Of a stretch of 64,000 nt of DNA, positions 5,226-61,567 are shown piece by piece (the stretch's first letter is position 1; each line of letters begins with the position of its first letter). Position numbers and translations under genes: made by a program. Under the pieces are notes generated by a model that was not told where the DNA came from, made no database searches, and saw only the letters and a program-made list of their open reading frames with translations. Source of the DNA: Squalus acanthias (taxonomy: Eukaryota); contig CM059452.1 in assembly GCA_030390025.1 (NCBI GenBank), positions 7,192,001 to 7,256,000 on the forward strand, read 5' to 3'.

Positions 5226-5525
5226 CGAAACCGTCTCCTCCCACCCTCTACGCCCTGCTCTCCTCCTGTGAACAACCCAACACCGGCGGCCCCGTCACCT
5301 ACGGCTGTTTGGCGATGGACTACTTCCCGGAAATCACCAGCCTTTCCTGGAGTAAAGATAAAGAGCCGATCACCACTGGATTGAAGACCTACCCGTCAGT
5401 GTTCAACAAGAAGGGAACCTACACCCTGAGCAGCCAGTTAACCATCACCGAGTCAGAGGTGGGGAGCAGCGCCATCTACTGCCAGGTTCGACAAAGTGGG
5501 TCGGACTTAAGCGTCAAAATGCCAG
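5226..5525 (+). CDS. IGHM: IgM heavy chain Cmu1 exon
   Basis: cag|...|gttag, phase 1; [59 protein letters not shown]...IYCQVR, closely matching elasmobranch mu CH1 as recalled. Confidence 0.95.
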
Positions 5526-5539
5526 GTTAGTGTTGTGGG

Positions 5540-6335
5540 ATACAGGGGGAAACTGTGAAAAGCAGAGAAGTTATGTTCAACTTCTATACAACCTTGGTTA
5601 GACCAGACTTAAGAGTACTGTGTACAGGTCTGGTCTCTATATCACACTTAGAGTACCGTGCACAGGTCTGGTCTCCATATCACACTTAGAGTACTGTGTA
5701 CAGGCCTGGTCTCCATATCACACTTAGAGTACTGTGTACAGGCCTGGTCTCCATATCACACTTAGACTGCTGAGTACAGGTCTGGTCTCCATATCACACT
5801 TAGAGTACTGCCTATAGTTTTGGTTTCCATATTATAAGAATGATACAGAGGCACTGGAGAAGTGCAAAAAAAGATTTACAAGGACGATACCAGAAAGAAA
5901 AATTGTAACTGACAAGAATGATTGAACGGACTTGGGATCTTTTTTGTAGAAAAGAAAGTCTGAGGGGTGACCGAATAGAGGTCTTTAAAATTATGAAGGG
6001 TTTGAAAGGTTAGACGCAGAGACAATATTTCTGCTTGAGGAGGAGCCCAATACTCGGGGCCATAAATATAAGATAATCACTAATAAATCAATATGGAATT
6101 CAGGAGAAACTTCTTTACCCAGAGAGTTGGTAGAATGTGGAACTCGCTACCACATAGAGTGGTTGAGGCGAACAGCATAGATGCGTTTCAGGGGAATCTG
6201 GATAAGTACAGGAGGGAGAAAGGAATAGAAGGTTATGTTGATGGGGGAGATGAAATAGGGAGAGAGGAGGCTCATGTGGAGCATAAACACCGACCTGTTG
6301 GGCCGAGTGGCCTGTTTCTGTGTTGTAGATTCTAT
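5540..6335 (+). mobile_element. CR1 LINE 3' fragment containing a 38-bp tandem amplification (5604-5831)
   Basis: RRNFFTQRV motif; ~6 copies of CACACTTAGAGTACTGTGTACAGGTCTGGTCTCCATAT. Confidence 0.9.
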
Positions 6336-6407
6336 GTAAAAAACCGCTTTACAGTTCTTATTGTTTGGATTACAACAAATAATCCCAATAAAATGTATTT
6401 CTTGCAG

Positions 6408-6719
6408 ATCGTGTGGTACATCATCCAACTGTGATCCTCACCCTGAGTTCCAGTGAAGAAATCATCAGCAGCAGGTCTGCAACCGCCGTGTGTTCAATCA
6501 TCGATTTCCGTCCAATGTCACTGACCGTGAATTGGCTGAAGAATGGACAACTCATGGATTCGGGCTTCGTCACCTCTCCCGTCTTTGAAGTGAACGGGAA
6601 CTTCTCGGCGACCAGTCGGCTGACATTCACCGCAGGGGAATGGTTCGCCGGCTTGGTCTATACCTGCCAGGTCTCTCATCAAGGGGACATCCAAAGCCGA
6701 AACATCACCAGATCTCCGG
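6408..6719 (+). CDS. IGHM: IgM Cmu2 exon
   Basis: ttgcag|..|gtaag; [19 protein letters not shown]...VCSIIDF...WLKNG...YTCQVSHQG. Confidence 0.95.
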
Positions 6720-6779
6720 GTAAGAGACACAACCCCGAGAAGTCCCAGATCATTCTGAGCGCCGCACTCAGTCAGGAGT

Positions 6780-7385
6780 CATAGAGTCATAACGGCACAG
6801 AAGGAGGCCATTCGGCCCATCGAGTCCGTGCCGGCTCTCTGTTGAGCAATCTAGTCAGTCCCATTCCCCTGCTCTATCCCCGTAGCCCTGCAAGTTTATT
6901 TCCCTCAAGTGCCGATCCAGTCTCCCCTTGAAAACATTGAGTGTCTCCGCTTCCACCACTTCCGTTCGCATTCCAGGTTATCACCACTCGCTGCGTAAAA
7001 AAGCTTTTCCACACAACCCCCCTGTATCTCTTGCCCAAAACCTTAAATCTGTGACCCTAGTTCTTATACCACCAACTAGTGGGAACAGGCTTTCCCCGTC
7101 TAGCCTATCCAAACCCGGCATAATCTTGTACACTTCTATCAAATCACCCCTCAACCTCCTTTGCTCTAATGAAAACAAATCCAGCTTCTCCAACCTGTCC
7201 TTGTAGCTAAGATCCCCCATCCCCGGAACCATCCTGGTAAATCTCCTCTGCACCCTCTCAAGGGCCTTCACATCCTTCCTAAAGTGTGGTGACCGGAACT
7301 GGACACAATACTCCAGTTGTGGCCTAACCAGCGCTTTATAAAGATTCAGCATAACTTCTCTACTTTTGTACTCAATACCTCTATT
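6780..7385 (-). mobile_element. CR1 LINE 3' fragment
   Basis: LYKALVRPQLEYCVQF..RRLRGDLIEVYK. Confidence 0.92.
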
Positions 7386-8913: not shown

Positions 8914-9222
8914 ATGGTTCCTCATGCAACGATCCAGAAATCACTCTTCCGCAACCGTCACTAGAACAGATCTTACTGGAGGCGACTGTGACCTTAACCT
9001 GCGTCGTGTCTAATGCTCCTTATGGAGTCAACGTGTCCTGGACCCGAGAAAAGGAGACTTTGAAATCAGAGATTGCCGTCCAACCCGGAGAGGCTCCCAA
9101 CAGCGTGATCAGCAACTTAAACATCTCGACACAAGCCTGGCTGAGTGGGGATGAGTTCTACTGCGTGGTGAGCCATCAGGATATGCCGACTCCTATAAGA
9201 GATTCCATCCACAAGGAAAAAG
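8914..9222 (+). CDS. IGHM: IgM Cmu3 exon
   Basis: cacag|..|gtgag; [43 protein letters not shown]...FYCVVSHQD. Confidence 0.95.
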
Positions 9223-9739: not shown

Positions 9740-10131
9740 CTAAACATCCGCGGGAACCGTCCGTGTCTGTCCTCCTGCCCCCGGCAGAAGAAGTCTCCGC
9801 TCAGAGGTTCGTCAGCCTCACCTGCTTAGTGAGAGGTTTCTCCCCCCGAGAGATCTTCGTCAAGTGGACACTCAATGACAAGCCGGTGAATTCCGGCAAC
9901 TACAAGAACACCGAGGTGATGGCGGAGAACGGCAGCAGTTCCTTCTTCATGTACAGCCTGTTATCCATTGCAGCGGAGGAGTGGGATAGCGGCGCTTCTT
10001 ACTCCTGTGTGGTGGGACATGAAGCGATCCCCTTGAAGATCATCAACAGAACGGTTAATAAATCCAGCGGTAAACCCAGTTTTGTCAACATTTCCCTTGT
10101 TCTGATGGACACCGTCAATTCTTGTCAATGA
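9740..10131 (+). CDS. IGHM: IgM Cmu4 exon plus secretory tailpiece (internal donor after 10069 for membrane form)
   Basis: ctgcag|; ...[24 protein letters not shown]|[19 protein letters not shown]; tailpiece NIS sequon and penultimate Cys. Confidence 0.97.
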
Positions 10132-10561: not shown

Positions 10562-11540
10562 AACTGTAACCCCCACTCCCCACCAGAGAGAGGGGAAGGG
10601 CAATTGTTAACCCACTGTACCCCCACTCCCCACCAGAGAGACGGGAAAGGGCAACTGTTAACCCACTGTACCCCCCACTCCCCCACAAGGGAGAGGGGAA
10701 AGGGCAATTGTTAACCCACTGTACCCCCCACTCCTCCACCAGAGAGAGGAGAAAGGGCAATTGTTAACCCTCTGTACCTCCCACTCCCCCACCAGAGAGC
10801 GGGGAAAGGGTAATTGTTAACCCACTGTACCCCCACTCCCCACCAGAGAGAGGGGAAAGGGCAATTGTTAACCCACTGTACCTCCCACTCCCCCACCAGA
10901 GAGAGGGGAAAGGGTAATTGTTAACCCACTGTACCCCCCACTCCCCACCGGAGAGAGGGGAAAGGGCAATTGTTAACCCACTGTACCTCCCACTCCCCCA
11001 CCAGAGAGAGGGGAATGGGCAATTGTTAACCCACTGTACCTCCCACTCCCCCACCAGAGAGAGGGGAAAGGGCAATTGTTAACCCACTGTACCTCCCACT
11101 CCCCCACCAGAGAGAGGGGAAAGGGCAATTGTTAACCCACTGTACCCCCCACTCCGCCACCAGAGAGAGGGGAAAGGGCAATTGTTAACCCGCTGTACCC
11201 TCACTTCTCCACCAGTGGGAGGGGAAAGGGCAATTGTTAACCCGCTGTACCCCCACTTCTCCACCAGAGAGAGGGGAAAGGGCAATTGTTAACCCGCTGT
11301 ACCCCCACTCCCCCACCAGAGAGAGGGGAAAGGGCAATTGTTAACCCTCTGTACCCCCACACCCCCACCAGAGAGAGGGGAAAGGGCAATTGTTAACCCA
11401 CTGTACCCCCACTCCCCCACCAGAGAGAGGGGAAAGGGCAATTGTTAACCCTCTGTACCCCCACACCCCCACCAGAGAGAGGGGAAAGGGCAATTGTTAA
11501 CCCACTGTACCCCCACTCCCCCACCAGAGAGAGGGGAGGT
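10562..11540 (+). repeat. ~53-bp C/G-tract minisatellite (~18 copies)
   Basis: CCCACTGTACC(C/T)CCCACTCCCCCACCAGAGAGAGGGGAAAGGGCAATTGTTAA. Confidence 0.95.
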
Positions 11541-13231: not shown

Positions 13232-13359
13232 ATTCCTCAGACCACATCTTGATTGAAGACTATGAGGAAGAGAGCGGCAACATCTGGACAACCGCTTCCA
13301 CATTCATCATCCTGTTCTTCCTGAGCATGTCCTACAGCGCTGCCGTCACTCTAGTGAAG
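13232..13359 (+). CDS. IGHM: IgM TM1 exon
   Basis: cgtag|..|gtgag; DSSDHILIEDYEEESGNIWTTASTFIILFFLSMSYSAAVTLVK (CART-type TM). Confidence 0.95.
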
Positions 13360-13499: not shown

Positions 13500-13508
13500 G
13501 TCAAGTGA
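13500..13508 (+). CDS. IGHM: IgM TM2 exon (VK*)
   Basis: ttacag|GTC AAG TGA; AATAAA at 13572. Confidence 0.92.
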   Translation, partial: VK

Positions 13509-16060: not shown

Positions 16061-17184
16061 CCGCTGTGCATTGTGGGAATCACTGTCCTTCATGGCTGCT
16101 TAAATCACTGACAGGGTGTGAGCCAACTGAACCACTGAATAGCAATTTATTACAGCCTCCCTCGGGGAAACTGCCACACAGTCAGAGTTCTCCTTACAGG
16201 CCAATAGCACTTGGTCAGATTTATTGCAGGTTAACTGACGCACGGAAGTTCAATGAGGCAACCAGTGACCGGAACAGCAAGAATAGCGAAAGAGATCAGA
16301 AATCTCTCTATTTTCTCCACAGATCTCCCGAAACATTCAACTAATTTTCTCTTTCATGTCCTCGCCCATTCGGTTGTGGGTTTCCAACACCTCTGTTTTC
16401 AAGCTTGGAAAGTGTCATCTAAATATAGTGAAACTAAAATAGAGTAATGGGTCGGAGGATTTCCCGAGCACCCCAATACATTAAATACTTGGTTTTGAAG
16501 GAATACACGAGATGAAATAACACACACAGGCAGAATATGGGAACCAGATCCTGTCCCATTAACGGAGCGACCAGCAGGAGGTTCCTGGCCCTGTCAGCAA
16601 CCTCTTTCTCGGAGCTGATCTTAACATTATTCACTGACCTGTCTGCAGTTCCTGTTTATGGGAAGCTGGGTTAGAGCGGTTCTGAATTAATATGCCGTGC
16701 AGCAGTAAAGGTTTTACATCGTTAAACTAAAGACTGGAAGAAGAAAGTCCATACGATTAGTAAAGAGTGGAGACAAGGGATGAGAAGAGACAGGCAGGCC
16801 CGGAAATTACATCAAAAGACAAAAGGTGAGTTGTGGAACCACAGACATGATTGCTGAAGTTCATTTTTAGTATAAATGCGAGTTGAAATCACAAACTAAT
16901 ATAATTCGGCCAGGGGACCTCACCTGTTCTTGTTGAGTGCTGTGTTTTTTTGTACTTTTAAGGAGGTCCGTGTGACTCTCACTGTGGAGGCTGAATTATT
17001 GCTTCTGGTTATCGGTGTGAGAGCGCCCTCTCAGTGTGCGTTTTGGTACACTAGGGACGTTGAAAAGTTACAATTTATGCTCATTGAGGTTCCTTCCAGA
17101 TATTGGGCTTCTGTTGGCCACTGCTTGAAGGAGTCTCCAGAACTCAGTTCTGCAGAAAACATTCCTGGTTTCCCATGGAAACAG

Positions 17185-17769: not shown

Positions 17770-20523
17770 TAAGAACATAAGAACATAAGAAATAGGAGCA
17801 GGAGTAGACCAATCGGCCCCTCGAGCCTGCTCCGCCATTCAATAAGATCATGGCTGATCTGATCCAACCTCAACTCTAAAGAACACAAGAAGCAGGAGCA
17901 GGACCCGGCCACTCAGCCCCTGGGCCCGCTACGCCACCCACAGGGCCTTGACCGATCCGAACTCAAACTCATGTCCAATTTCCAGCCCGCTCCCCGTAAA
18001 CCCTGATTCCCTTTACTTCTAGGAAACGGTCTATTTCTGTTTTAAATTTATTTAATGAAGTAGCTTCCACAGCTTCCTGGGGCAGCAAATTCCACAGACC
18101 CACTACCCTCTGAGTGAAAAAGTTTCTCCTCATCTCAGTTTTGAAAGAGCAGCCCCTTATTCTAAGATTATGTCCCCTAGTTCTAGTTTCACCCATCATT
18201 GGGAACATCCTCACCGCGTCCACCCGATCAAGCCCCTTCATAATCTTATATGTTTCAATAAGATCGCCTCTCATTCTTCTGAACTCCAATGAGTAGAGTC
18301 CCAATCTACTCAACCTCTCCTCGTATGTCCACCCCCTCATCCCCGGAATTAACCGAGTGAACCTTCTTTGTACTGCCTCGAGAGCAAGTATGTCTTTTCT
18401 TAAGTATGGACACCAAAACTGTATGCAGTACTCCAGGTGCGGTCTCACCAATACCCTATACAACTGCAGCAATACCTCCCTGTTTTTATATTCTATCCCC
18501 CTAGCAATAAAAGCCAACATTCCATTGGCTTTCTTGATCACCTGCTGCACCTGCATACTAACTTTTTGATTTTCTTGCACCAAGACCCCCAGATCCCTTT
18601 GTACTGCAGTACTTTCCAGTTTCTCGCCATTAAGATAATAACTTGCTCTCTGATTTTTCCTGCCAAAGTGCATAACCTCACATTTTCCAATATTGTATTG
18701 CATCTGCCAAGTCTCTGCCCACTCACCCAGCCTGTCGATATCCCCTTGTAGGTTTTTTATGTCCTCCTCACTCTCTTCTTTCCCTCCCATCTTTGTATCA
18801 TCTGCAAACTTTGATATGTTACACTCGGTCCCCTCCTCCAAATCGTTAATATAGATTGTAAAGAGTTGGGGACCCAGCACCGACCCCTGCGGAACACCAC
18901 TGGCTACTGGTTGCCAGTCCGAGAATGAACCATTTATCCCAACTCTCTGCTTCCTGTTAGATAACCAAACCTCCACCCATGCCAGAATATTACCCCCAAT
19001 CCAGTGATTTTTTATCTTGAGTAATAATCTTTTATGTGGCACCTTGTCGAATGCCTTCTGGAAGTCTAAATACACTACATCCACTGGTTCCCTTTATCCA
19101 CCCTGTACGTTATGTCCTCAAAGAACTCGAGCAAATTTGTCAGACATGACTTCCCCTTCATAAAGCCATGCTGACTTTGTCCTATTAAATTATGTTTATC
19201 TAAATGTTCCGTTACTGTCTCCTTAATAATAGACTCCAAAATTTTACCCACCACAGATGTTAGGCTAACTGGTCTATAATTTCCAGCCTTCTGCCTACAA
19301 CCCTTTTTAAATAAGGGTGTTACATTAGCAGTTTTCCAATCTGCCGGGACCTTTGCTGAGTTCAGGGAGTTTTGGAAAATTATTACCAAAGCATCCACAA
19401 TTCCTACTGCCACTTCCCTCAAGACCCTAGGATGTAAGCCATCAGGTCCAGGGGATTTATCCGCCTTGAGTCCCATTATTTTACTGAGTACCAATTCCTT
19501 AGTGATTTTAATCGTATTTAGCTCCTCCCCCACTAGAGCCCCCTGTTTGTCCAGTGTTGGGATATTCTTAGTGTCCTCTACCGTAAAGACTGAAACAAAA
19601 TATTTGTTCAGCATTTTTGCCATCTCCATGTTTCCCACCATTAATTTCCCGGTCTCATCCTCTAAGGGACCTACGTTTGCCTTAACCACCCTTTTTCTTT
19701 TTATATAACTATAGAAACTCTTGCTATCTGTTTTTATATTTTTTGCTAATTTATTTTCATAGTCTATTTTCCCTTTCTTAATCAATCCTTTAGTTACTTT
19801 TTGTTGTCTTTTGAAGACTTCCCAATCTTCTATCCTCCCACTAACTTTGGCTACCTTATATGTCCTTGTTTTTAGTTGGATACTTTCTTTAATTTCTTTA
19901 CTTAGCCATGGATGGCTGTCATTTCTTTTACACCCTTTTTTCCTCAGTGGAATATATTTATTTTGAAAGTTGTAAAATAACTCCTTGAATGAACACCACT
20001 GCTCATGTACCGTCTTACCCTTTAATCTATTTTCCCAGTCCACTTTAATCAATTCTGCTCTCATGCCATCATAGTCTCCTTTATTCAAGCTCAGTATGCT
20101 TGTTTGAGAACCAACCTTCTCACCCTCTAATTGGATATGGAATTCAACCATGTTATGGTCACTCATTCCAAGGGGATCCTTAACTAGGACATTATTAATT
20201 AATCCAGACTCATTACACAGTACCAGGTCCAAGGTTGCTTGCCCCCTTGTAGGATCAGTTACATACTGCTCAAGAAATCCATCCCTAAGACACTCAATAA
20301 ACTCTTCCTCAAGGCTGCTCTGCCCAATTTGATTTGTCCAGTTAATATGATAGTTAAAACCCCCCATAATTATAGCTGTTCCCTTATTACATGCCCAACT
20401 ATTTCCTGATTAATACTTCTTCCAACAGAGTTGCAACTATTAGGAGGCGTATATACTACGCCCACCAGTGTTTTTTTCCCCTTATTATTCCTAATCTCTA
20501 CCCAAACTGTTTCATTATCCTGA
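17770..20523 (-). mobile_element. Young CR1 LINE: partial APE domain + RT + 3'UTR with (TTCTTATG)n tail
   Basis: 430-aa and 371-aa ORFs separated by one frameshift at ~19084. Confidence 0.95.
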
Positions 20524-22596: not shown

Positions 22597-23067
22597 ATGT
22601 GCTCCCCGTGTTCCATACTGATAATAATGGTCGTGCTGTCCAGTGAGTACATGTGTAAATGGTCATTGTGTGTTTCGCGGATTATCCTTACTCCCAGACT
22701 TTTGACACATTCTGTGTTTTGTTACAGGAACGAGTGGCAAAGATTCAGTGTCCCAGGATCCGTCTGAATTAATGGTTCAGCAAGGAAAAAACATTATATT
22801 GAACTGCAGTTACTCGGCAGCTGCTCCAACTCTGTTCTGGTACATCCAGTATCCCGGGAAGCTCCGAGATATTTACTGAGGATATATAGCTCGGGGACGG
22901 TAGACCGGTCTCCAGATTTCCCAGGCCGGTTCTCTGCTGTTTTGCACAGAGACAGCAAAACGGTTCCTTTAAATATCACCGCGGTTCTTGTCTCCGACAG
23001 CGCCGTGTATTTCTGTGCCATGAGCCCCACACTGCTGCAGAGATATAGCGGATCCCGTACAAAAACC
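22597..23067 (+). pseudogene. TCR alpha/delta-type V, frameshifted (leader 22597-22642, V exon 22728-23027, RSS 23028-23067)
   Basis: DSVSQDP..LNCSY..FWYIQYPG, 1-nt loss at GGG ~22856, then DSAVYFCAMS; CACACTG-24-ACAAAAACC. Confidence 0.88.
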
Positions 23068-23324
23068 CACACTGAGAGTTCCAGTTAGTGATCACCAGAG
23101 GGCGCTCTCACATCGATAACCAGCAGCGATAATTCAGCCTCCACAGTGAGAGTCACAGGGAGATTCTTAACAGAGCGACATGTCACAACACTCAACAAGA
23201 ACAGGTCAGGTCCACTTGGGGATCTTTTAGGTGATTTCAACTCGTATTTATAATAAAAATGAACTTCACAAATCATGTCTGTGGCGCCTTAACTCCCCTT
23301 TTGTCCTTTCTCTATTGTGTACAT

Positions 23325-24379: not shown

Positions 24380-24893
24380 ATGCGGCTACTCAGCATCTGG
24401 GCTGTGTGGGGGGCATTTCTGACAGGTAATTGTGGACCAAACACATTTCATCTTTTCTCTCATTTCTAACATGGTTTGAATCTGAATTTTAAACACCCGC
24501 CGGTCTGATCTTTTCCTGTTTGAACATGTTTTTCAGATCTGAGTCTTGGAGATTCTGTCACTCAGCCGCTGTCCTCAGGAGTTAAGACAGAAGGAGAAGC
24601 GGTGACTGTAAACTGTACCTATGACACTAAATGGAGCACCTTTAATTATTTATATTGGTACCGGAACCACCCAGACACACAGCCCGAGTTTATACTGTGG
24701 AAGGATCATGATGGTGTTGATGGTGTTGAGCATAAAGCAGATTTTGGTAAAACCCGTTTCTCTGCAGAAATCCAGACCTGGACTAAATTCACCAGTTTAA
24801 CCATCTCGGGGCTGCAGCTGACCGACACTGCAGTTTATTACTGCGCCCTGAGACCACACTGATGGAAACCAGTTAAACCCTGGTACAGAAACT
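24380..24893 (+). CDS. TCR alpha/delta-type V, intact (leader 24380-24425, V exon 24537-24854, 23-RSS 24855-24893)
   Basis: MRLLSIWAVWGAFLT|DLSLGDSVTQ..NCTY..YWYR..DTAVYYCALR; CACACTG-23-ACAGAAACT. Confidence 0.92.
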
Positions 24894-25605: not shown

Positions 25606-26169
25606 TGTGTTTGTACGAGGCTCCCTCTGGTTCCTGTCACTGTGTCTCTCAGCCCGCAGTGATACACCGCGCTGTCAGACAGCCGTAGGCCGCGGATGGT
25701 GAAATTCCCCTCACTTTCTGAAATGTCGTGAAATGCGGAAATTCGAGCCCCCGTGCCCTCTGCTTTGAAAACATCTCCGTAAGAAGGACTGTAGATCAGC
25801 AATGTTGGCCCATTGTCGCGGTCCTGACGGTACAGTTGTAAGGAATGTGAAGGAGCAGTGGTCGAATAGCTGTAATTAATGGTCACCGAGTCTCCTTCAA
25901 ACTGCATCGCTGCAAGCGGCCCCTGTGAGACCGAGTCCGCACAACTAACACCTGCAGAAATATAGAAATACACAACTTTAAACTTTTATTATCATTTTAT
26001 TATAACTGATAGCATCAAGGTGACGGAACATACAGGAAATAGAGAGAAAATACAGTTAAAAGGAAGATTCTCTATGACACTCACAAGAGGGAAGATTGTG
26101 TAACTTGTAAACTTTACCAGTTAAGAGAGCCGCAGCTGTGACGAATGAATAAAAAGTAACTCCTAACAT
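25606..26169 (-). pseudogene. TCR V ORF lacking first Cys and conserved Trp (leader 26118-26169, V exon 25645-25951, 23-RSS 25606-25644)
   Basis: INYSY (C->Y), LQLYRQ (W->L), VYHCGLR; CACAGTG-23-ACAAACACA. Confidence 0.85.
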
Positions 26170-27217: not shown

Positions 27218-27788
27218 TGAGAGATTCAGTCAATTTCTAATAATACTGGCGGCTGTGTTGAACAGTAAGTATTGGATTATATTTAAAACACAGGTTAGCT
27301 GGTTGATGCAAAGAGCGTGTGCAGGGATTTAGTGCAATTACCGATCAGAAATATCCACATGATGGACAGCTGTGTAGATGGAGGGTTACCCACTCTCATA
27401 CAGATAGACACAAGTTTCGATTTAATCTTCTGCTCTTCTGTTCCCCTATCTTCACAGGCGGGCTGTGTGCAGATCCAGTAACTCAGTCTCCGGTGACAAT
27501 TGCCGTGTCAACAGGGGGTTCGGTGCAGTTAGATTGTGAAAATAAAAGCCCGGATATTGACTACATGCAATGGTATCGGCAGAAATCGGCACAGCCACCA
27601 AGCTGGATAATTAGCAAAGTGGTAGCACTGAAGGGAGACGAAATCTCAGGACAATATCTGGCAGCTGCTAACACGTCTAGAAAGTACGGTTACCTCAATA
27701 TAAGCAGCCTGAGTGTGGAGGACGGAGCGGTCTATTACTGTGCAGTGAGGCACAGCGTCAGAAAAAGCAAAGGCCCCGTACAAAAACC
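27218..27788 (+). pseudogene. TCR V with open V exon (27458-27750) but leader lacking ATG; RSS 27751-27788
   Basis: ..ERFSQFLIILAAVLN|gtaagt; DPVTQSP..LDC..QWYRQ..DGAVYYCAVR; CACAGCG-22-ACAAAAACC. Confidence 0.8.
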
Positions 27789-27899: not shown

Positions 27900-28272
27900 T
27901 TGTATTTGTGTCTGTGTCTTTGCCCAAATCAGCGGAGAACCGGTCTGGGAAATCTGGAGACTTCACTCCCTGCCCCGAGCTGTATCTCCTCATTAAATAT
28001 CTCGGATCTTCCCCGGGGATACTGGTTGTACCAGAAGAGGTAGGGAAATCTATCGGCTGTGGAGTAACTAGAGTTCAGTATTAAGATCTGTCCTTCCTGA
28101 ACCGTTAATTCAGGTGGATCCTGGGAAAATGAGGCTTCGCCATTGTAACAAAATACTGAATCTGTCAGAAGTCTGGGAGTAAATATAACCCATGAAATAC
28201 ATACGATATTTTAAACATAGACTCACCGGGCAGCACGACCATTATTATCAGTAAGAAACATGGGGAGCGCAT
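27900..28272 (-). pseudogene. 3'-truncated TCR V pseudogene, paralog of the 22.6-kb V
   Basis: Leader 28227-28272 near-identical; acceptor deleted, first Cys lost, no YYC or RSS. Confidence 0.8.
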
Positions 28273-31960: not shown

Positions 31961-32428
31961 GGTTTTTGTACAGTGACTGCCGCGTTTCCTCTCAGTGTGC
32001 GGGTCTATCGCACAGTAATACACCGCGGTATCCGCGCTCTCCGTGCTCTCAATGACCAATTGGCCGCGTTTGTCCGCAGTGGAAAGATCCAAATTAATTC
32101 GGCCGCTTCTCTCTTTGCCAGCTGATGCCCGCTTTATTACCCACTCCAGTCCCTGACTGGATTTCTGTTTGTACCAGTGCATGGCGTCAATGCTGGACAT
32201 GTCATAGCTGCAGTTTATCTGCACCGAATCCCCGCTCCGGACTGTTATCGCAGCGGGAGACTGCAGCACTCGGTCCGAGAGACATCTACCTGTAAAAACA
32301 TTCAGATAATAAAAAACTGGAGGAACGTGAATAAAACAAACACTGGGTTATTGAGCTCAGCTCCTGTACCTACATGGTAGCAGCACCAGAATAACGAGTG
32401 ATACATTCACTTGTACCGAGTAATACAT
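31961..32428 (-). CDS. TCR alpha/delta-type V, intact (leader 32374-32428, V exon 32000-32289, 23-RSS 31961-31999)
   Basis: MYYSVQVNVSLVILVLLP|CRCLSDRVLQSP..INCSY..HWYKQ..DTAVYYCAIDP; CACACTG-23-ACAAAAACC. Confidence 0.92.
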
Positions 32429-34946: not shown

Positions 34947-35461
34947 GGTTTTTGTACGGGCTCCGCTATATCTCTGCAGCAGTGTGGGGCTCATGGCACA
35001 GAAATACACGGCGGTGTCCGAGATCAGGGCATTACTGATCGTTAGCTCGGTAATCTTGCTGCTTTTATTAAACGTAGAAGAGAATCGGTCAGTGAATTCA
35101 GGGTTCCTGTTTACTATCGCTCCATAGAGATAAAACACGTACTGTGGAGGCTGCCCGGGGTGCTGACTGTACCAGTACACATGAGGGTTAGGAGCGGTTG
35201 TTTTCAAGGCGCAGTTTAGTGTGACATTACTTTCCTCTTCAACCGTTATTTCAGGAACCGGCTGTTCCACTGCGTCTTGCTGGCTCCATTCTAATATAAA
35301 ATAATAGTAATAGTCATCTCCATCACAATCATCATCAGGATCATTTAACCAATTATCATGCTGGGTTACAGCCGTCAGGGGGAGAATGGATTTTAACTGG
35401 GGAGGAAATACTTACTGAGAAGTGATATAATGATGAGGAGCGGTGCGAGGCGGTTCCACAT
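34947..35461 (-). CDS. TCR alpha/delta-type V, intact (leader 35416-35461, V exon 34987-35290, RSS 34947-34986)
   Basis: MWNRLAPLLIIISLL|KWSQQDAVEQP..LNC..YWYSQ..DTAVYFCAMS; CACACTG-24-ACAAAAACC. Confidence 0.9.
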
Positions 35462-36196: not shown

Positions 36197-36568
36197 GGTT
36201 TCTGTGCGGACTCTCCGCCTGTTTGTTACACTGTGGGCTCACGGCGCAGAGATAGGTGGCGCTGTCTGTCACTCGCGCGTCTCTCACAGTCAGGGCACTG
36301 AGTTTATTGCCTCCCCCGATTGAAGCAGTGATCCTCCCGTGTTGATCGGCCCGCTTGTGGCCATCACCAGGTGCTGGGGTGTCTGATCCGGTTTCTGTCT
36401 GTACCAGTGCAGGACGTTAAACGCAGCGGTAGCAGAGCAATTGATGGATACAATTCCCTCTTCACTAACAACCACCCGCCGAGGGAGCTGCTTCACCTCA
36501 TCTTCACCGCTCACATCCGTGTAGATCAGAGTGTAAATCAGCAGGGAAACTCTGTAAATCCGCTGCAT
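36197..36568 (-). pseudogene. Intronless leader+V TCR segment, 1-nt frameshift near 36348; 23-RSS 36197-36235
   Basis: MQRIYRVSLLIYTLIYTDVSG-EDEVKQLP..INCS..HWYRQ; CACAGTG-23-ACAGAAACC. Confidence 0.85.
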
Positions 36569-38359: not shown

Positions 38360-38945
38360 ATGCGGAACCGTCTCGCACCGCTCCTCATCATTATATCACT
38401 TCTCAGTAAGTAATTCCTCCCCAGTAAACATCCATTCTCCCCTGACTGCTGTAACTCAGGTGTTATTATTGGTGAAATGATGATAATGATGATGAATTAG
38501 ACACATTTCACCTTTTCTCTCATTTCTAACATGGTTTGAATCTGAATTTTAAACACCCGCCGGTCTGATCTTTTCCTGTTTGAACATGTTTTTCAGATCT
38601 GAGTCTTGGAGATTCTGTCACTCAGCCGCTGTCCTCAGGAGTTAAGACAGAAGGAGAAGCGGTGACTTTAAACTGTACCTATGATACTACACAGGGCGGC
38701 AGCTATAATTTGTACTGGTACCGGCAACACCCAGACACACAGCCCGAGTTTATTCTAATGAAATACGCGAGCGGTTCTGAAGATAAAGCACATTTTGCCC
38801 AAACCCGTTTTTCAGCACAACTCGACAGCTCCACTAAATTCACCAGTTTAACCATCTCGGGGCTGCAGCTGACCGACACTGCAGTTTATTACTGTGCCCT
38901 GGGACTCACAGTGATGGATACCCGTTAAACCCTCGTACAGAAACT
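38360..38945 (+). CDS. Chimeric intact TCR V (leader 38360-38405, V exon 38597-38906, 23-RSS 38907-38945)
   Basis: Leader MRNRLAPLLIIISLL (35.4-kb family) on V exon DSVTQPLSSG..YYCALGL (24.5-kb family); CACAGTG-23-ACAGAAACT. Confidence 0.9.
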
Positions 38946-40379: not shown

Positions 40380-40851
40380 ATGTATTTCTGTTTAACTGCC
40401 CTGATTTACTTCTCAGGTAAGTGTTGGGGGTGACGGGCTGATTCTGGGGGATAGACACAGTGAAGTGACATTGTTTAATTTAATATCGCTCTGGGCTCTT
40501 GCAGGACATTGTCGAGGAGACTCCGTTTCACAGACACCGGCTGCAACCACAGTCAGTGAAGGAGACGATGTTCAGTTGCACTGTAATTATACAGCTACAA
40601 GCACCAGCAATCCTTAACCTATTCTGGTACCGTCAGTATCCCAGCGGATCCATGGAGTATCTGCTGCAGAGAACAAGATACAGCGAGAACGAAGGGAGAT
40701 TTCCAGGGGACCGTTTTTCAGCGAAGCTCAATGATTCGAGCCGAACCGTCCCGCTGAAAGTGTCTGAAACACAACTGACAGACTCCGCGGTGTATTACTG
40801 CGCACTGAGCCCCACAGAGACACGGAGCTGGGCTGGACCTGTACAAAAACT
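40380..40851 (+). pseudogene. TCR V with +1 frameshift at ~40616 (leader 40380-40416, V exon 40505-40812, 23-RSS 40813-40851)
   Basis: CCT TAA instead of CCT TAC; FWYRQYP..DSAVYYCALS; CACAGAG-23-ACAAAAACT. Confidence 0.87.
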
Positions 40852-41372: not shown

Positions 41373-41718
41373 ACAGCGTCATTGGATGGATCGCTCATTG
41401 GCCAATGGAAGAGGTGACCGCTCAGGAGGGAGAGATCGCGAGAATAACCTGCTCCTATACAGAGGTGACGAGAGTTTGCCTGTCCTGGTACCGGGAGGGT
41501 CGGTCCGTGGGCCCGGAGAATATCCTCATCCGCTGCACCGACCGGTTCAGTGACGATGCGAACTTTGCAAGACGGCGCTTCACCTCATCTTTGGCCAAAA
41601 CTAACAGAACCGTCAGTTTAAGGGTTTCACAGCTGACAGCTGCGGATTCCAGGAAATACTTCTGGGTCATAACACCGCACACGGTGCTGTATTTAGAGCA
41701 AGAGCCGACAGATAAACT
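41373..41718 (+). pseudogene. Divergent TCR V ORF lacking the second canonical Cys; 23-RSS 41680-41718
   Basis: ITCSY..VCLSWYRE..IRCTD..DSRKYFW; CACGGTG-23-AGATAAACT; CR1 fragment at 40970-41225 upstream. Confidence 0.75.
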
Positions 41719-45859: not shown

Positions 45860-46362
45860 AGTTTTTGTACGGGGGTGAGACTGCTTTCCATCACTGTGAG
45901 TCTCAGGGCGCAGTAATACACGGCAGCGTCAGTCAGCTGCAGCCCGGAGATGGTTAAACTGGTGAATTTAGTCGAGGTCTTGAGCTCAGCAGAGAAACGG
46001 GTTTTAGCAAAATCTGCTTTTTCCTCACCACTGCTCGAGCCTTTCCACAGTATAAACTCGAGCTCTGTGTCTGGGTGCTGCCGGTACCAGTATATATAAT
46101 AGCCGCTCTGTGTAGTATCATAGGTACAGTTTAAGGTCACCGCTTCTCCTTCTGCCTTAACTCCTGAGGACAGCGGCTGAGTGACAGAATCTCCAAGACT
46201 CAGATCTGAAAAACATGTTTAAAGAGGAAAAGATTAGACCGGCGGGTGTTTAAAATTCAGATTCAAACCATGTTAGAAATGAGAGAAAAGATGAAATGTG
46301 ATGGGTCCACAATTACCTGTCAGAAATGCCCCCCACACAGCCCAGATACTGAGTAGCCGCAT
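45860..46362 (-). CDS. TCR alpha/delta-type V, intact (leader 46317-46362, V exon 45899-46205, 23-RSS 45860-45898)
   Basis: DSVTQPLSSG..NCTY..YWYRQ..DAAVYYCALRL; CACAGTG-23-ACAAAAACT. Confidence 0.92.
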
Positions 46363-51259: not shown

Positions 51260-51294
<35 letters not shown>

Positions 51295-52957: not shown

Positions 52958-53463
52958 AGTTTTTGTACGGGGGTGAGACTGCTTTCCATCACTGTGAGTC
53001 CCAGAGAAAGCGCAGTAATACACGGCAGCGTCAGTCAGCTGCAGCCCGGAGATGGTTAAACTGGTGAATTTAGTCGAGGTCTGGAGCTCAGCAGAGAAAC
53101 GGGTTTTAGCAAAATCAGCTTTATCTTCACCACTGATCGAGCCTTTCCACAGTATAAACTCGGGCTGTGTGTCTGGGTGCTGCCGGTACCAGTATATATG
53201 ATAGCCGCTCTGTGTAGTATCATAGGTACAGCTTAAAGTCACCGCTTCTCCTTCTGTCTTAACTCCTGGGGACAGCGGCTGAGTGACAGAATCTCCAAGA
53301 CTCAGATCTGAAAAACATGTCCAAACAGGAAAATATCAGAGCGGCAGGTGTTTAAAATTCAGATTCAAAACATATAGAATTGAGAGAAAAGATGAAATGA
53401 GTTTTTACCACAATTACCTGTCAGAAATGCCCCCCACACAGCCCAGATGCTGAGTAGCCGCAT
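52958..53463 (-). CDS. TCR alpha/delta-type V, intact (leader 53418-53463, V exon 52997-53307, 23-RSS 52958-52996)
   Basis: Paralog of the 45.9-kb V; DAAVYYCAFSGT; CACAGTG-23-ACAAAAACT. Confidence 0.9.
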
Positions 53464-55218: not shown

Positions 55219-55732
55219 GGTTTTTGTACGGGATCCGCTATATCTCTGCAGCAGTGTGGGGCTCATGGCACAGAAATACACGGCGGTGTCGGAGATCAGG
55301 GCGTTGCTGAGCGTTAGCTCGTTAATCTTGCTGGTTTTATTAAACGTAGAAGAGAATCGGTCAGTGAAATCGGGGTTCCTGTTTACCATCCCTGCATAGA
55401 GATAAAACACGTACTGTGGAGGCTGCCCGGGGTGCTGACTGTACCAGAACACAGAAGGTTAGTAGTGCTTGTTTTCAAGGTGCAGTTTAGTGTGACATTA
55501 CTTTCCTGTTCAACGTCATTTCAGGGACCGGCTGTTCCACTGTGTCTTGGTGACTCCATTCTAAAATAAAATAAGAGTAATAGTCACCATCATCATCATC
55601 ACCATCAGGATCATTTAGCTAATTATCACAGCTGGGTTATAGCAGTCAGGCGCTGAATGGATTTTAACTGGGGAGGAAATACTTACTGAGAAGTGATATA
55701 ATGATGAGGAGCGGTGCGAGACGGTTCCACAT
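55219..55732 (-). pseudogene. TCR V with two 1-nt deletions (paralog of the 35-kb V)
   Basis: Leader 55687-55732; frameshifts in FR1 and CDR1; RSS CACACTG-24-ACAAAAACC. Confidence 0.85.
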
Positions 55733-56522
55733 GACGCTCCCTGAGTCTGTAATTCTGCAGTCCGGGAAATCCTCTGTGGGAGCAGAAATACAGATCCCCG
55801 CCCCACTGCACTGCAGATCCAACCAATGCCAAAGAAGGAACAGAGGCTGTAATCTCTCCAATAACAGAAGGCGGGTCAGATCGAGAGCAGCAAACGGAAG
55901 CTGTGGGCGGGGCTGCCGCAGGCAGTGTGACCGCAAGATTTGTCTCTATAATTTCCAGTTGATAACGGCCGGAAACATGTGACCACGGCGCCATCTGGCG
56001 GTCACTTTGAGAGCATTACACTGTCAGGATAATAGATTGAGTCAAGTGTGAGTTTATCTATGGCGCAGTTTCCAGCGTCCGGGTTTTGGGAGAGGCGGTT
56101 CAGACAAGTTAACTGTGAAATAGGTGAAAGGGTAATATGAGTGAGCTTAAAGGAAAGGGCATTTTACGTTATTTCTGAATCTCTTACTTTATGGATTTCT
56201 CTTACTTTTTAGATTTGTGTTTCTCACTTGTTATTTCTCACCTTCTTTCATTTCTCTTTCCCTCCTTTCCTAATTTGCTGTCGGCTGCACATATTATTAC
56301 ATTGATTTGTCTCTTTCTCTCATTCTTTCTTTGGTGCTTTCGCTTTGTTTTCCTCTGACTGTGTTTCAAAATCACTTCATTTCAGAATTTCTTTACATTT
56401 CTCTCTTCTATATTTCCTATTATTTTTCTGTGCTCATTCCCTCTGCCCTCCGATTATTATAACCGGGCCCCTCCCAATCCCGTTACTCCAAACACAGCAG
56501 AGCGGCGCTCCCCCTCGGGGCA

Positions 56523-56895
56523 GGTTTCTGTGCGGACTCTCCGCCTGTTTGTTACACTGTGGGCTCACGGCGCAGCGATAGGTGGCGCTGTCTGTCACTC
56601 GCGCGTCTCTCACAGTCAGGGCACTGAGTTTATTGCCTCCCCCGATTGAAGCAGTGATCCTCCCGTGTTGATCGGTCCCGCTTGTGGCCATCACCAGATG
56701 CTGGAGGGTCTGATCCGGGTTCTGTCTGTACCAGTGCAGGACGGTAAACGCAGCGGTAGCGGAGCAGTTGATGGACACGATTCACTCTTCACTTACAACC
56801 ACCCGCCGAGGGAGCTGCTCCACCTCATCTTCACCGCTCACATCCGTGCAGATCAGAGTGTAAATCAGCAGGGAAACTCTGTAAATCCGGAGCAT
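56523..56895 (-). pseudogene. Intronless leader+V TCR segment with in-frame TGA (56782-56784); 23-RSS 56523-56561
   Basis: MLRIYRVSLLIYTLICTDVSGEDEVEQLP..SEE*IVSINCS..DSATYRCAVS. Confidence 0.85.
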
Positions 56896-57986
56896 TATCC
56901 GATCAGATGAAGAGGAGGCTGAAAGAATTGTTCACAGAGGTCGGGTTAGAACTAGGACACGGATATTATATTCAGGGTAATTAACAAAGAGACAAACTCT
57001 CGCTTCTTGTCCAACGCAGAGGTTTCTTCCCGTCGAACTAACGAAACAAGCTGTATCTCTGGGTTTATCCACACCGGGCCGCCCACTCAGTCCTGGGTTT
57101 ACCCAGCCCGGGCCGCTCACAATCAGTGTTTCTCACTGACACCAGCTCACACTGTCTCTGAGCTCACACCGGGCCGCTCACACTCAGTGTTTCTCACTGA
57201 CACCAGCTCACACTATCCCTGAGCTCACACCGGGCCGTCCACACTCAGTGTTTCTCACTGACACCAGCTCACACTTTATCTGAGCTCTCAGCGGGTCGCC
57301 CACACTCAGTGTTTCTCACTGACACCAGCTCACGCTGTCTCTGAGCTCACACCGGGCCGCCCACACTCAGTGTTTCTCACTGACAGCAGCTCACATTGTT
57401 AATGGTGAGCCCTATTTTAGACATATTATTCGGTATCTTTTAAACACAATCTGAGAAACTATTAAACAGCAAAGTTGGTTCACACCGCCCCCTTGTGGCT
57501 GTTGGCTGATTCACATTTCAACTTTCCGTGCAATGAATGTAACGTGAATTGGTCTGTCTGGACACCGCGAGGTTTATTTTGGGCCGTTTTTACGTGTCGT
57601 GTGAAATACAGAATGGAGACACTCTTCAGGAATTCATTCTCAAAGAATCTTCATATATTAAAACACAAAAAAGGTGATTAAGCCCATCAAGCCTTCACTT
57701 CCATTCTCGCTCCATGCTCTTTAATAATTCTCTCAGTACCTAATATGCATCTTTATAAAAGAATAATTGATGGAATCTGCGTCACTAACAGTGTCTGGCA
57801 GAGAATTCCACCTTCTCACCTCCCTTAAATAAGAACCTTTTTGAAGAATGAACTTCAGTCCGAAGGTTTTTTCCCACTGTTCCCTGTTTGGCATTGGTTG
57901 GATCAGCAGTGCAGTGGGGCGGGATCTGTATTTCTGCTCCGACAGAGGATTTCCCGGACTGCAGAGTTACAGACTCAGAGAGCATC

Positions 57987-58483
57987 ATGCGGATCCCTCT
58001 CGAAACGCTCCTCGTCATTATATCACTTCTCAGTAAGTATTTCCTTCCCAGTGAAATGCCATTCTCCACCTGACTGCTGTAAACCAGATGTTAACGTGGT
58101 AAAATGCTGTTGATGATGATGAATATTACTATTATTTTATGTTAGAATGGAGCCACCAAGACACAATAGAACAGCCTGTCCCTGACGGTTGAAGAGGAAA
58201 GTAACGTCACACTAACCTGCACCTTGAAAACAGTCTATGCTAACCCTTTTGTGTTCTGGTGCAGTCACCACCCCGGACAAACTCCACTGTACGTAGTTTA
58301 TCACTATGTAGGGATAGTTAACCGGGGCCCGGCTTCACTGACAGATTCTCTTCTACATTCAATCAAACAACCAAGATTACCGAGCTAACGATCAGCAATG
58401 CCTTGATCTCAGACACTGCCGTGTATTCCTGTGCCATGAGCCACAGACTGCTGCAGAGATACAGCGGATCCCGTACAAAATAC
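57987..58483 (+). pseudogene. TCR V pseudogene of the 35-kb family
   Basis: Leader 57987-58032, exon from 58146, 5-nt deletion gives an early TGA; degenerate RSS. Confidence 0.82.
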
Positions 58484-58619
58484 CACATTGAGAGTTCCAG
58501 TTAGTGCTCACCAGAGGGCGCTCTCACACCGATAAACAGAAGCGACAATTCCGCCTCCAAAGTTGGAGAGACAGAGATCTTCTTAAAAGCCCGACAAAAC
58601 ACAGCACGCAACAAGATTG

Positions 58620-59852
58620 CAGCCTCATTACAGCTTTGGTCCAAACATGGACAAAATAGCTGAATTCCAGAGATGAGGTGAGAGTGACTGCCCTTGACAT
58701 CAAGGCAGCATTTGACCGAATGTGGCATGAAGGAACCCTAGTAAATTTGGAGTCAATGGGAATCGGAGGGAATTTTCTCCACTGGCTGGAGTCATACCTA
58801 GCACAAAGGAAGATGGTTGTGGTTGTTGGAGGTCAATCATCTCAGCCCCAGGACATCGCTGCAGGAATTCCTCGGGGCAGCGTCCTAGGCCCAACCTTCT
58901 TCAGCTGCTTCATCAATGACCTTCCCTCCATCATAAGGTCAGAATTGGGGATATTCGCTGATGATTGTACAGTGATCAGTACCATTTGCAACTCCTCAGA
59001 TAATGAAACAGTCCATACCTGCATGCGGCAAGACCTGGACGACATTTAGGCTTTGGCTGATAAATGGCAAGTAATATTCGCACCACACAAGTACCGGGAA
59101 ATGATTATCTCCAACAAGCGAGAGTCTAACCCCCTCCGCTTGACATTTAACGGCATTGCCATCGCCGCATCCCCCACCATGAACATCTTGGGGGGTTCAC
59201 CAATGGCCAGAAACTTAACTGGACCAGCAACATAAATACAACAAGAGCGGGTCAGCGGGTCGGTATTCAGCGGGCAGGTATTCTCCTGTCTCCCCAAAGC
59301 TTTTCCACCACCTACAAGGCACAAGTCAGGAGTGTGATGGGATACTCTCCACTTGCCTGGATGAGTGCAACTCCAACAACACTCAAGAAGCTCGACACCA
59401 TCCAGGAAAAAGCAGCTCGCTTGATTGGCACCCCATCCACCACCTTAAACATTCACTCCCTCCACCACCGGCGTACCGTAGCTGCAGTGTGTACCATCTA
59501 CAAGATGCACTGCACCAACTCACCAAGGCTTCTTCGGCAGCACTTCTCAAATCCGCGACCTCTACTACCTAGAAGGACAAGGGCAGCAAGCTTATGGGAA
59601 TACCATCACCTGCAAGTTCCCCTGCAAGTTAGACACCATCCTGACTTGGAAGTATATTGCCGTTTCTTCATCGTCGCTGGGTCAAAATCCTGGAACTCCC
59701 TCCCTAACAGCACTGTGGGAGTACCTTCACCACACGGACTGCAGCGGTTCAAGAAGGCGGCTCACCACCACCTTCTCAAGGGCAATTAGGGATGGGCAAT
59801 AAATGCTGGCCTTGTCAGCGAAGCTCACATCCCGGAACGAATAATAAAAAAG
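58620..59852 (+). mobile_element. Non-LTR retrotransposon 3' part (RT) with A-rich tail
   Basis: ALDIKAAFDRMWH, GSVLGP, FADD, WNSLP; GGGCAATAAATGCTGGCC tail. Confidence 0.9.
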
Positions 59853-60471
59853 ATCCAATTCAGGAATTATATTAGCTTGTGCTTTCATCTCGCATTTATA
59901 ACAAAACTTAACTCCCCTTTACTCTTTCGACCCCTTTCCGTGCCTGCATGCAATATTGTGCAGCCCTTTACACATCTCCACTGTCAGTTTCCCGGAGCCT
60001 TTCTTCGCGGCCTGTACACAGGCTTTATTTGATCAGAGTATGTTGCGAGATCACAGACAGTTTATACACAATGAACACATTTCACAAGGTAGTGATTTTA
60101 CTCTTTTAAAACAGGCCCCAAGCACAGAGTTCCCCCAATGCCCATTGTCCTTCAGAATGTCTCTTTAATGCTGGAATGTTTTCTGTCACCATTAATAATC
60201 GCTGAGCTTCCGGTTACAATAACCAGACAAGAGTTTCATTTCCACCCCAGTCTCTAAAAGCGGAAGCATTCCTCTATAAGGACACTAACTGTAGCCCAGC
60301 TCCGGGTGTTTCCATTCACTGGCAGCCAGCTCACCACCTACCGGTCTCACAGCACCACTGGGGATACCAGCAAGTGAGGTGAGAGCAACCTGAGACACGA
60401 CAGCAGATTATTGAGGGCGGGGATTAGAAGGGGTTTCTTCAAATATCAAATTTACAGAGTGGACAACGACA

Positions 60472-60518
60472 ATGCGGCTACTCAGCATCTGAATTGTTTT
60501 GGGGGCATTTCTGACAGG
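60472..60518 (+). pseudogene. Orphan defective leader (24.4-kb family); V exon replaced by an L2-like fragment (60565-60905)
   Basis: ATGCGGCTACTCAGCATCTGA..ACAG|GTAATC; promoter 59930-60470 parallels 23835-24380. Confidence 0.7.
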
Positions 60519-61087
60519 TAATCGAGGAACAAACACATTTCATCTTTTCTTTAATCTCCAAAAACTGAATTGGAGGCGCACAGAGATCTCGGAGGGTTGT
60601 GGGGCTGGAGGCAGTTACAGAAATAGGGAGGGGCGAGGCCATGGAGTGGGATTTGTATACACGGAAGAGAATATTGAAATCGATGCATTGCCTTACTGGG
60701 AGCCAAAGAAGGTCAGCGAGCACAGGGGTGATGGGCGAACGGGACTCGGAGCGAGTTACGATACGGGCAGGAGAGTTTTGAATGAGCTCAAGTTTACGGG
60801 TGGTGTAAGGTGGCAGGCCGGCCAGTCGAGCATTGGAATAGTCGAGTCTAGAGGTAACAAGGACGAGGGTTTCAGCGGAAGGTGAGCTGTGGTAGGGGCG
60901 GAGTTAAAATGCTACCCAGTTAAAGCATTCGGTTCATTTTACCAGGAATAGATTTGCACGAGATACTCCCACACCTTCTGTTATACCTTCCAGTCGAACA
61001 GTTTCTTACTTTACTCAGTATAACAGATTGCAACAGGAAATAGAACTGCTGTTCCAAGGGGTTATTTGTGAAGATATAATTGAGCCC

Positions 61088-61567
61088 ATGTCGTACCGTC
61101 ACCTCGTTATATTGTGCCTGCTGTTCGGTAAGTATGACCATGCATTGTGTCTGTGCACCAATGTGATGTTAATAGACTTTCTATCTCAGTATTGTATTCA
61201 ACCCTCAGTTAACTTTTATTTCAGGGGAGATTCAGGCAGATTCGGTGTCACAACCTCAGACCGCGCTCTATGTCACTAAAGGAGATGTTGTGAAAATAAA
61301 CTGTAGCTATACAATAAGCCACGATAACCCCGATTTGTACTGGTACCAGCAGTACACGAACCAGGCTCCGCGATTTATTTTGTACCGGGATAACAGCCAG
61401 GAAGACGAGGCGGATTTTGCCAAGGGAAGATTCAAGGCCGATCAGACCAACGCAGAAAAGAAGTTTCCTTTGACGATCACTCGAGCGGAAATCCAGGACA
61501 CCGCCGTATATTACTGCGGGCTGAGAATCACAGTGTTTTAAAACTCATCTGTCGCTGTACAAAAACC
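61088..61567 (+). CDS. TCR alpha/delta-type V, intact, consensus 23-RSS (leader 61088-61127, V exon 61225-61528)
   Basis: MSYRHLVILCLLF|GEIQADSVSQPQ..INCSY..YWYQQ..DTAVYYCGLR; CACAGTG-23-ACAAAAACC. Confidence 0.93.

Follow-up and report, generated by a model that had tools for sequence, protein, structure and literature searches.

What kind of locus places the constant region of an antibody next to T cell receptor (TCR) V segments? This question is raised by a stretch of 64,000 nucleotides from Squalus acanthias (the window), in which a preliminary description saw an intact IgM constant region abutting a TCR alpha/delta V array. Very probably, the window represents a repeat unit from the antigen-receptor complex of elasmobranchs (AgRC; Flajnik et al., Sci Adv 2025, PMC12227049), i.e. 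from an array in which L-VH-D-D-JH-Cmu clusters alternate with TCR alpha/delta V blocks and which likely grew by segmental duplication of IgM together with its downstream V block, followed by scrambling. The IgM part of the window comprises six exons:

5226..5525, plus strand: Cmu1 exon; AG acceptor, GT donor, open frame
6408..6719, plus strand: Cmu2 exon; open frame, carries a Cys-to-Phe variant
8914..9222, plus strand: Cmu3 exon; AG acceptor, GT donor, open frame
9740..10131, plus strand: Cmu4 with secretory tailpiece; the membrane form uses an internal donor after 10069
13232..13359, plus strand: TM1 exon; splice sites and open frame
13500..13508, plus strand: TM2 exon; encodes VK-stop

All six exons have AG acceptors, GT stands at each of the five internal donors, and the secreted and the transmembrane form both translate free of stops. 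The secretory tail retains its penultimate Cys and is followed by AATAAA/ATTAAA hexamers at 10160 and 10170; further hexamers of this kind follow TM2 at 13572, 13965 and 14300. This check bears out the six mu exons with canonical splice sites, open frames and both poly(A) regions that had been reported. Cmu4 with the tailpiece matches named nurse shark and Triakis IgM at 84–89%, the best named matches being IgM chains, and a genome search scored 40 copies of Cmu1 genome-wide. The epithet "intact" holds for splicing and reading frames, but with the caveat that Cmu2 harbors Phe where seven of eight compared chondrichthyan IgM chains have Cys. The variant is common to 21 Cmu copies (the window and 20 others), and no published description of it was found in the literature searched.

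The upstream VH-D-D-JH segments that the preliminary description had envisaged were found at C29:7187137-7188914, 3–5 kb upstream of the window (C29 being its scaffold). Leader and VH are open, two D and a JH with GT donor follow, and the recombination signal sequences (RSS) are laid out as 23/12-23/12-12/23. Because this leader-VH-D-D-JH set is complete, the window Cmu is not an orphan, a reading that is thereby ruled out. The window IgM cluster is a complete shark IgM minicluster: like those of horn shark (P0033), nurse shark (P0031/P0032) and Triakis (P0029), to which its Cmu matches at 65–76% over 421–439 aa, it has one V, two D, one J, four C domains, a secretory tail and two TM exons, and it differs from them in the Cmu2 replacement. 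A rearranged secreted IgM, P0028, matches the window Cmu at 95% and the upstream VH at 91%; it is not the product of the window copy, since it matches the Cys-type Cmu2. In a neighbouring cluster, V and D are joined in the germline, as described in PMC6795676. A J-like stretch near 2010-2060 of the window was dismissed, as it has neither a W/F-G-x-G frame nor an RSS.

Downstream of TM2, the window holds 19 V or V-relic positions, nine on the plus and ten on the minus strand, as well as an insertion:

17034..17135, minus strand: TCR V relic, 5' third; marker common to the most frequent cassette type
17772..20522, minus strand: LINE-like insertion, 2.75 kb, with RT-like ORFs; in 8 cassette copies, absent from 6
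22742..23025, plus strand: TCR alpha/delta V with a frameshift and an intact RSS; several paralogues are open
24551..24853, plus strand: TCR alpha/delta V, intact; leader, 23-RSS, tree placement
25647..25937, minus strand: TCR V, open frame, first Cys and Trp lost
27472..27750, plus strand: TCR alpha/delta-type V, open, 22-spacer RSS; no leader found by script
27907..28135, minus strand: V pseudogene
32003..32275, minus strand: TCR alpha/delta V, open, 23-RSS; tree placement
34989..35276, minus strand: TCR alpha/delta V, intact; leader, 24-spacer RSS, tree placement
36237..36502, minus strand: V pseudogene, frameshift
38611..38904, plus strand: TCR alpha/delta V, open, 23-RSS; tree placement
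40519..40810, plus strand: V pseudogene, frameshift
41390..41674, plus strand: TCR V, open, second Cys lost, poor RSS
45901..46191, minus strand: TCR alpha/delta V, intact; leader, 23-RSS, tree placement
53003..53293, minus strand: TCR alpha/delta V, intact; leader, 23-RSS, tree placement
55261..55560, minus strand: V pseudogene
56563..56830, minus strand: V pseudogene
58170..58441, plus strand: V pseudogene
61239..61567, plus strand: TCR alpha/delta V, intact; leader, consensus 23-RSS, tree placement

Eight of the 19 combine an open frame, both Cys, the Trp and an RSS with a 22–24 spacer, and for five of these eight a script located a plausible leader exon; in two more the frame is open but a core Cys is missing, and nine are broken or partial. 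The window V carry a 3' RSS with a 23 (+/-1) spacer and have no adjacent J-C. A V does stand about 9 kb 3' of TM2, as had been stated (at 22742, 9.2 kb away), but it is frameshifted and not the nearest: the relic at 17034-17135 lies 3.5 kb from TM2 and the first intact V, at 24551, 11.0 kb. The claim that no gap separates TM2 from the first V stands, the sole N run of the window (215 letters) falling outside 13.5–22.7 kb.

All 11 near-full-length window V fall on the TCR alpha/delta side of a phylogeny (split support 99/97) that was built from 94 columns without TRGV, with an inferred TRB label and with the eight broken window V left out. The assignment of these segments to the TRAV/TRDV type, and not to IGHV, IGLV or TRBV, is thus borne out. 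The V families that the window shares with segments upstream of TRDD on the unplaced contig C911 argue against a TRG class. At the family level, the V at 38611 occurs in other sharks, on chains of TRDC and of TRAC type, while a search of longer proteins returned two unrearranged models only for the family of 27472, which is weak evidence. Sequence searches of the PDB were dominated by multi-domain scFv; the near-top single-V chains were TCR alpha or delta for three of five queries (32003, 34989 and 61239), but not for 38611 and 27472. Four contig sets presumed to be RNA covered almost only repeats when compared with 22600-41000, and no V-J loose ends were among the matches listed; no interleaved V copy was linked to a rearranged transcript.

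The preliminary description placed a single IgM cluster within or at the border of TCRAD. A complete cluster among TCR V is indeed present, but interleaved units of this kind number at least 31. Cmu4 has 31 matches of 88–100% over 4.3 Mb (C29:5.97-10.27 Mb; 18 plus, 13 minus) at a median spacing of 103 kb, in alternation with blocks of TCR V. All 150 scored matches of a window V, out of 1462 candidates, lie at C29:5.99-10.28 Mb or on five unplaced contigs that also bear Cmu, and 30 of 33 Cmu 3' flanks have a V match within 20 kb. In these 33 flanks, 48 V retain both Cys, the Trp, an open frame and a good RSS; defective V segments recur between copies as well. Two V of the NARTCR type, paired at C29:7.35 Mb, cluster with domains from elephant shark. 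Scaffold N runs are present in the array.

The TM-to-V junction of the window occurs in 16 of the 33 flanks (window counted), collinear and at 93.6–100%, which makes a misjoin between TM2 and V unlikely. The 15 copies beyond the window lie on both strands and two contigs and diverge by 1–6%, and in four of them unbroken alignments of 10.9–16.2 kb (98.3–99.0%) run from TM1 into the V block. The contiguity of TM2 and V that had been proposed is accordingly supported by comparison with paralogous copies, on which it rests. A second cassette type, with a 4-kb TM1-TM2 intron and a different V order, was found in seven flanks, including that of C911. Since the 2.75-kb insertion is present in eight copies and absent from six, the cassettes have a nested history. 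On a finer scale, a co-phylogeny of the Cmu 3' end and the V block was not supported: the trees are incongruent, and the copies are therefore mosaics. Likewise, pairwise distances of the TM segment and of the first V segment across the 16 copies are uncorrelated (Mantel r 0.15, p 0.21), so that simple whole-unit duplication is insufficient. No V was found within 95 kb 5' of the VH of the window cluster or within 100 kb 5' of the VH at C29:5.80 Mb, and the V blocks therefore belong 3' of Cmu. A comparison of these V-free 5' spacers was dominated by tandem repeats.

TRDC and TRAC have one match each, both on C911, which displays the order IgM, TCR V, 29 VH-type V, TRDD/J/C, TRAJ, TRAC, with a D, 11 TRDJ and TRAJ detected. 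The two constant genes expected further along were hence located, but not within the C29 array, which ends at 10.32 Mb without TRD/TRA. The TCR V of the cassette at the start of C911 are in cis with TRDD-J-C and TRAJ-C; in the assembly, C911 is separate from C29. Several C29 V are 98–100% like C911 V. The 29 VH-type V stand in tandem about 4 kb apart, and the RSS threshold used revealed no D, J or C belonging to them. With their place in the VH clade, their 23-RSS and their position directly upstream of TRDD, they resemble the TCRdelta-associated IgH-like V named TAILV/VHdelta in PMC12227049; these candidates sit on C911 and not in the window, whose VH belongs to a full IgM cluster. Placement of C911 at a 500-N gap at C29:5802929 would fit, as a VH-D-D is cut there and C911 starts at Cmu1. 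No overlap was found between the gap edge and C911, and synteny with PMC12227049 (Table S1) could favor C911 lying the other way round.

A composite B/T receptor locus, as the preliminary description put it, is thus seen in the interleaving but is no novelty: the arrangement is already known, as the AgRC, in other sharks and rays, PMC12227049 reporting interleaved IgM and TCR V in four elasmobranchs (text and Table S1). Shared with the AgRC as given there are the TCR alpha/delta and NARTCR V that separate IgM miniclusters, in both orientations, the presence of VH-type and NARTCR V in the TCRdelta V region, and the order of VH-type V, TRDC and TRAC stated for stingray and catshark and, in Table S1, also for great white. 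Also in common is a further IgH isotype lying beyond these clusters on their scaffold, seen here as Cmu4-like matches of 42% at C29:16.7-17.7 Mb. Among the linkage features named there (PSMB5, IgW, IgNAR, UrIg2), the proteasome gave 28 matches, none on C29 or C911 and several on other unplaced contigs. The Squalus array is denser, with 31 Cmu on C29 versus about nine IgM models in great white, and has 29 VH-type V before TRDD versus seven "Ig-TCRd V" for stingray. As far as its text and Table S1 go, PMC12227049 lists gene models without a duplicated unit of IgM plus V block, cassette types or RSS state; no published description of such a unit was found in the literature searched.

Expansion of the array likely proceeded by copying an IgM gene and its downstream V block together in segmental duplications, with unequal crossing-over or gene conversion scrambling the copies later. 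In B cells, each cluster would rearrange internally, its VH 23-RSS joining to a D 12-RSS, with JH lying some 1.3 kb off. In T cells, a 23-RSS V could be joined to a distant 12-RSS TRDD or TRAJ, by deletion or inversion depending on its strand. The 23-RSS of a cluster VH would be equally compatible with TRDD, and the known VH-TCRdelta chains would then be ordinary cis joins. Access is probably lineage-specific and not that of one open domain, although the preliminary description suggested a shared RAG-accessible one.

More tentatively, though quite conceivably, the IgM cluster and its TCR V block form an amplification unit, in which selection for antibody number also multiplies working TCR alpha/delta V. 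Hundreds of V in both orientations would then lie between at least 31 live IgM genes and be brought together with a single distant TRD/TRA through inversion or deletion across IgM clusters, and the Cys-less Cmu2 subclass of 21 copies would have spread in the same course. It is rather unlikely that the interleaved V are instead passengers copied with IgM, mostly too far away or wrongly oriented, with the working TCR V set being the IgM-free stretch at 23–347 kb of C911. Passive copying would fit the defects at 11 of the 19 window positions, the defective V common to several copies and, weakly, the scarcity of the 27472 family among longer proteins, but it accords poorly with the 48 well-kept V in the flanks, the near-identity of several C29 and C911 V and the 38611 family on TRDC- and TRAC-type chains.

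Improbable is also a single RAG-accessible domain shared by both lineages, in which TCR V would join IgM D-J-Cmu as well and yield chimeric antibodies. The 23-RSS of the TCR V is formally compatible with the 12-RSS 5' of D1, and VH-to-TCRdelta joins have been described (PMC12227049, PMC6795676). However, the V blocks lie 3' of Cmu, with V-free flanks 5' of both VH, the sole rearranged IgM of near-identical sequence that was seen, P0028, carries a normal VH, and section 15 of PMC12227049 argues that regulation at the chromatin level likely protects TCR alpha from joining to VH. An assembly artefact, i.e. a misjoin of IgM and V array or inflation of copies by haplotypes or duplicates, is highly improbable: copies 94–99% alike, a LINE and tandem repeats at the junction and unplaced parts of the locus could foster one, but the recurrence of the junction with its nested insertion states, the seven occurrences of a different junction type and the equivalent interleaving in the four species of PMC12227049 leave the misjoin reading largely refuted.

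Taken together, the window is best read as one AgRC repeat unit. The AgRC layout accounts for VH-TCRdelta chains as cis joins and has implications for how the IgH translocon and TCR hypermutation came about, a case already made in PMC12227049. What the Squalus acanthias genome adds is resolution, in the form of recurring cassette types, datable insertions, the inversion of about half of the V and copy-diagnostic differences. At this level, it becomes testable whether the V lying among IgM clusters are put to use and by what means RAG separates B and T cell joins where 23-RSS VH and 23-RSS TCR V are mixed.

The IgM gene in the window (C29:7192001-7256000 of the Squalus acanthias genome G000) is complete. 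Its six Cmu exons lie where the preliminary description placed them; acceptors are AG and donors GT, both the secreted and the membrane chain translate as open frames, and poly(A) hexamers follow both ends. The VDJ segments were found upstream, 3-5 kb outside the window (C29:7187137-7188914): an open leader and VH with a 23-RSS, followed by two D segments and one JH. The closest named relatives of Cmu4 and its tail are shark IgM chains (84-89%). A 52-bp tandem array occupies window 10563-11537. A caveat to its intactness is that the Cmu2 exon (6408-6719) encodes Phe in place of a conserved non-canonical Cys, which seven of eight compared chondrichthyan chains have. By exact-pattern count, 21 copies are of the Phe type (the window and 20 paralogues), all confined to the TCR-interleaved array or to unplaced contigs sharing it, while 14 are of the Cys type, eight of these on C3, C130 and C988. 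The Phe copies might represent an IgM subclass whose interchain bonding is altered. The database chain P0028, a rearranged secreted IgM 95% like the window Cmu, has a Cys-type Cmu2 and hence indicates expression at the family level only.

The interval from TM2 to the V block is indeed without any N. Of the TCR V proposed about 9 kb 3' of TM2, the presence was borne out (at 9.2 kb), but it is frameshifted and a V relic lies nearer, at 3.5 kb; the first intact V follows 11.0 kb after TM2. There are 19 positions with a V or V relic in the window (9 plus, 10 minus), eight of which are open with both Cys, Trp and an RSS of 22-24 spacer, two open without a core Cys, and nine broken or partial. In a tree of 71 rows and 94 columns that omitted broken V, 24 of 29 tandem VH-type V and TRGV, all 11 tested window V fell on the TCR alpha/delta side. 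That side also held shark TCR chains, mammalian multi-V models and the V that precede TRD/TRA, and it was split at 99/97 from IGHV, IGLV and a pair of TRB-like V. The family of exon 38611..38904 (+) resembles, at 55-66%, V carried by chains of TRDC and TRAC type in other cartilaginous fish. The window V exons are classed as TCR alpha/delta type. Most copies of two V families, including those on C911, have a 24-base RSS spacer (window 23028, 34986, 55258). The window also contains V-block duplications (33640-37079 vs 53914-57382; 45344-46945 vs 52455-54062; 89-93%) on either side of a 49-bp tandem array (46937-50496).

A misjoin between IgM gene and V block is very unlikely, since the same collinear junction recurs across copies and a second type recurs as well. 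Contiguity was assessed by comparing, among paralogues, the 20 kb that follow each of 33 Cmu copies (27 on C29, four on the unplaced contig C449, one each on C911 and C988; four later-found C29 copies are outside this set). A V match is present in 30 flanks, the V-free ones being a stretch ending at TM1, one C449 copy and the C988 copy. In 16 of the 33, the window among them, TM segment and first-V segment are shared collinearly at >90%, and the V series is then the same in order and strand to each stretch's limit. For four other copies a single alignment covers the stretch from TM1 into the V block (10.9-16.2 kb, 98.3-99.0%), and for a further two it begins about 1 kb past TM2; a 2.75-kb insertion (window 17772-20522) is present in eight copies and absent in six. 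In the second cassette type (seven copies, including that of C911), the intron between TM1 and TM2 is 4 kb long and a V on the minus strand follows TM2 at 4.2-4.4 kb; a few remaining flanks lead to NARTCR-type V.

The array spans C29:5.97-10.27 Mb with 31 Cmu4 copies (18 plus, 13 minus; median spacing 103 kb), most with VH matches beside them. With one window V as query, all 150 scored matches (of 1462 candidates) fell in this interval or on five unplaced contigs also bearing a Cmu. At C29:7348642-7354269 (minus strand), 100 kb beyond the window, lies a V of presumed NARTCR type that groups with elephant shark domains, together with a Cys-bearing supporting V (Vdelta); similar V come after three other Cmu copies. 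In the next IgM cluster, the VH (C29:7284725-7285015) is of a second family; it is already fused to D in the germline and ends in a 12-RSS. A lone minus-strand TM1 exon within a V block (C29:7337804-7337920), near which no C exon turned up in the 264 kb scanned, is a partial cassette. C29:10.32-10.40 Mb, at the array end, carries three tandem LINE copies with long ORFs, then C2H2 zinc-finger ORFs; four further IgM-like Cmu4 (83-86%) and three matches of another isotype (42%) occur at C29:16.6-18.2 Mb.

TRDC and TRAC gave one match each, both on the IgM-bearing, unplaced 864-kb contig C911, but this contig is unjoined to the window's scaffold C29. Its gene order, drawn from the ~64% of the contig examined by sequence retrieval or search, is as follows.

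C911:120, Cmu1
C911:23-347 kb, TCR V
C911:376998-519384 (377-519 kb), 29 VH-type V on the same strand, ~4 kb apart, 28 with 23-RSS
C911, between the VH-type V and TRDC, one D and 11 TRDJ
C911:583 kb, TRDC
C911:680-777 kb, TRAJ
C911:782 kb, TRAC

Hence, IgM and TRD/TRA share one contig there. No D, J or C of their own was detected, at the RSS threshold used, for the 29 tandem VH-clade V, which, directly upstream of TRDD, form a large VHdelta/TAILV-like array. At the left end of the C29 array, VH-D-D (C29:5801887-5802929) is interrupted by a 500-N gap, where C911, which starts at a Cmu1, may belong.

Such interleaving has precedent: in great white, catshark, epaulette shark and stingray, according to PMC12227049, the IgH clusters have TCR alpha/delta-type V exons between them. 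Table S1 of that paper shows, on both strands, IgM in alternation with TCR V and NARTCR V; for stingray it gives IgM/TCR V first, then Ig-TCRd V, TRDC and TRAC. As S. acanthias likewise interleaves IgM and TCR V, its locus is a further instance of this published elasmobranch complex. In the literature covered by the searches (mostly listings, with few subscription journals) and in the sections of PMC12227049 consulted, no description was found of the Cmu2 Cys-to-Phe variant, of cassette co-duplication or of an array of 29 VH-type V ahead of TRDD. Taken together, the preliminary reading of IgM beside TCR V is real and correct and of larger extent than could then be seen, and the layout is largely known already.

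The recurring junctions and cassette types point to IgM gene plus V block as the likely duplicated unit. Over 16 copies, TM-segment and first-V distances were uncorrelated (Mantel r 0.15, p 0.21), which speaks against simple whole-unit duplication; the copies thus seem to be mosaics, as would be expected from unequal exchange or gene conversion. Under the 12/23 rule, each IgM cluster would recombine internally in B cells, while in T cells TCR V would be joined to TRDD or TRAJ, by deletion or inversion depending on strand, and a cluster VH could join TRDD in cis. V blocks sit 3' of Cmu, and no V was found within the 95-100 kb 5' of two VH, so that TCR V-to-DH joins may be limited. With a chance that we place just short of even, co-amplification of IgM and V block feeds the working TCR repertoire.
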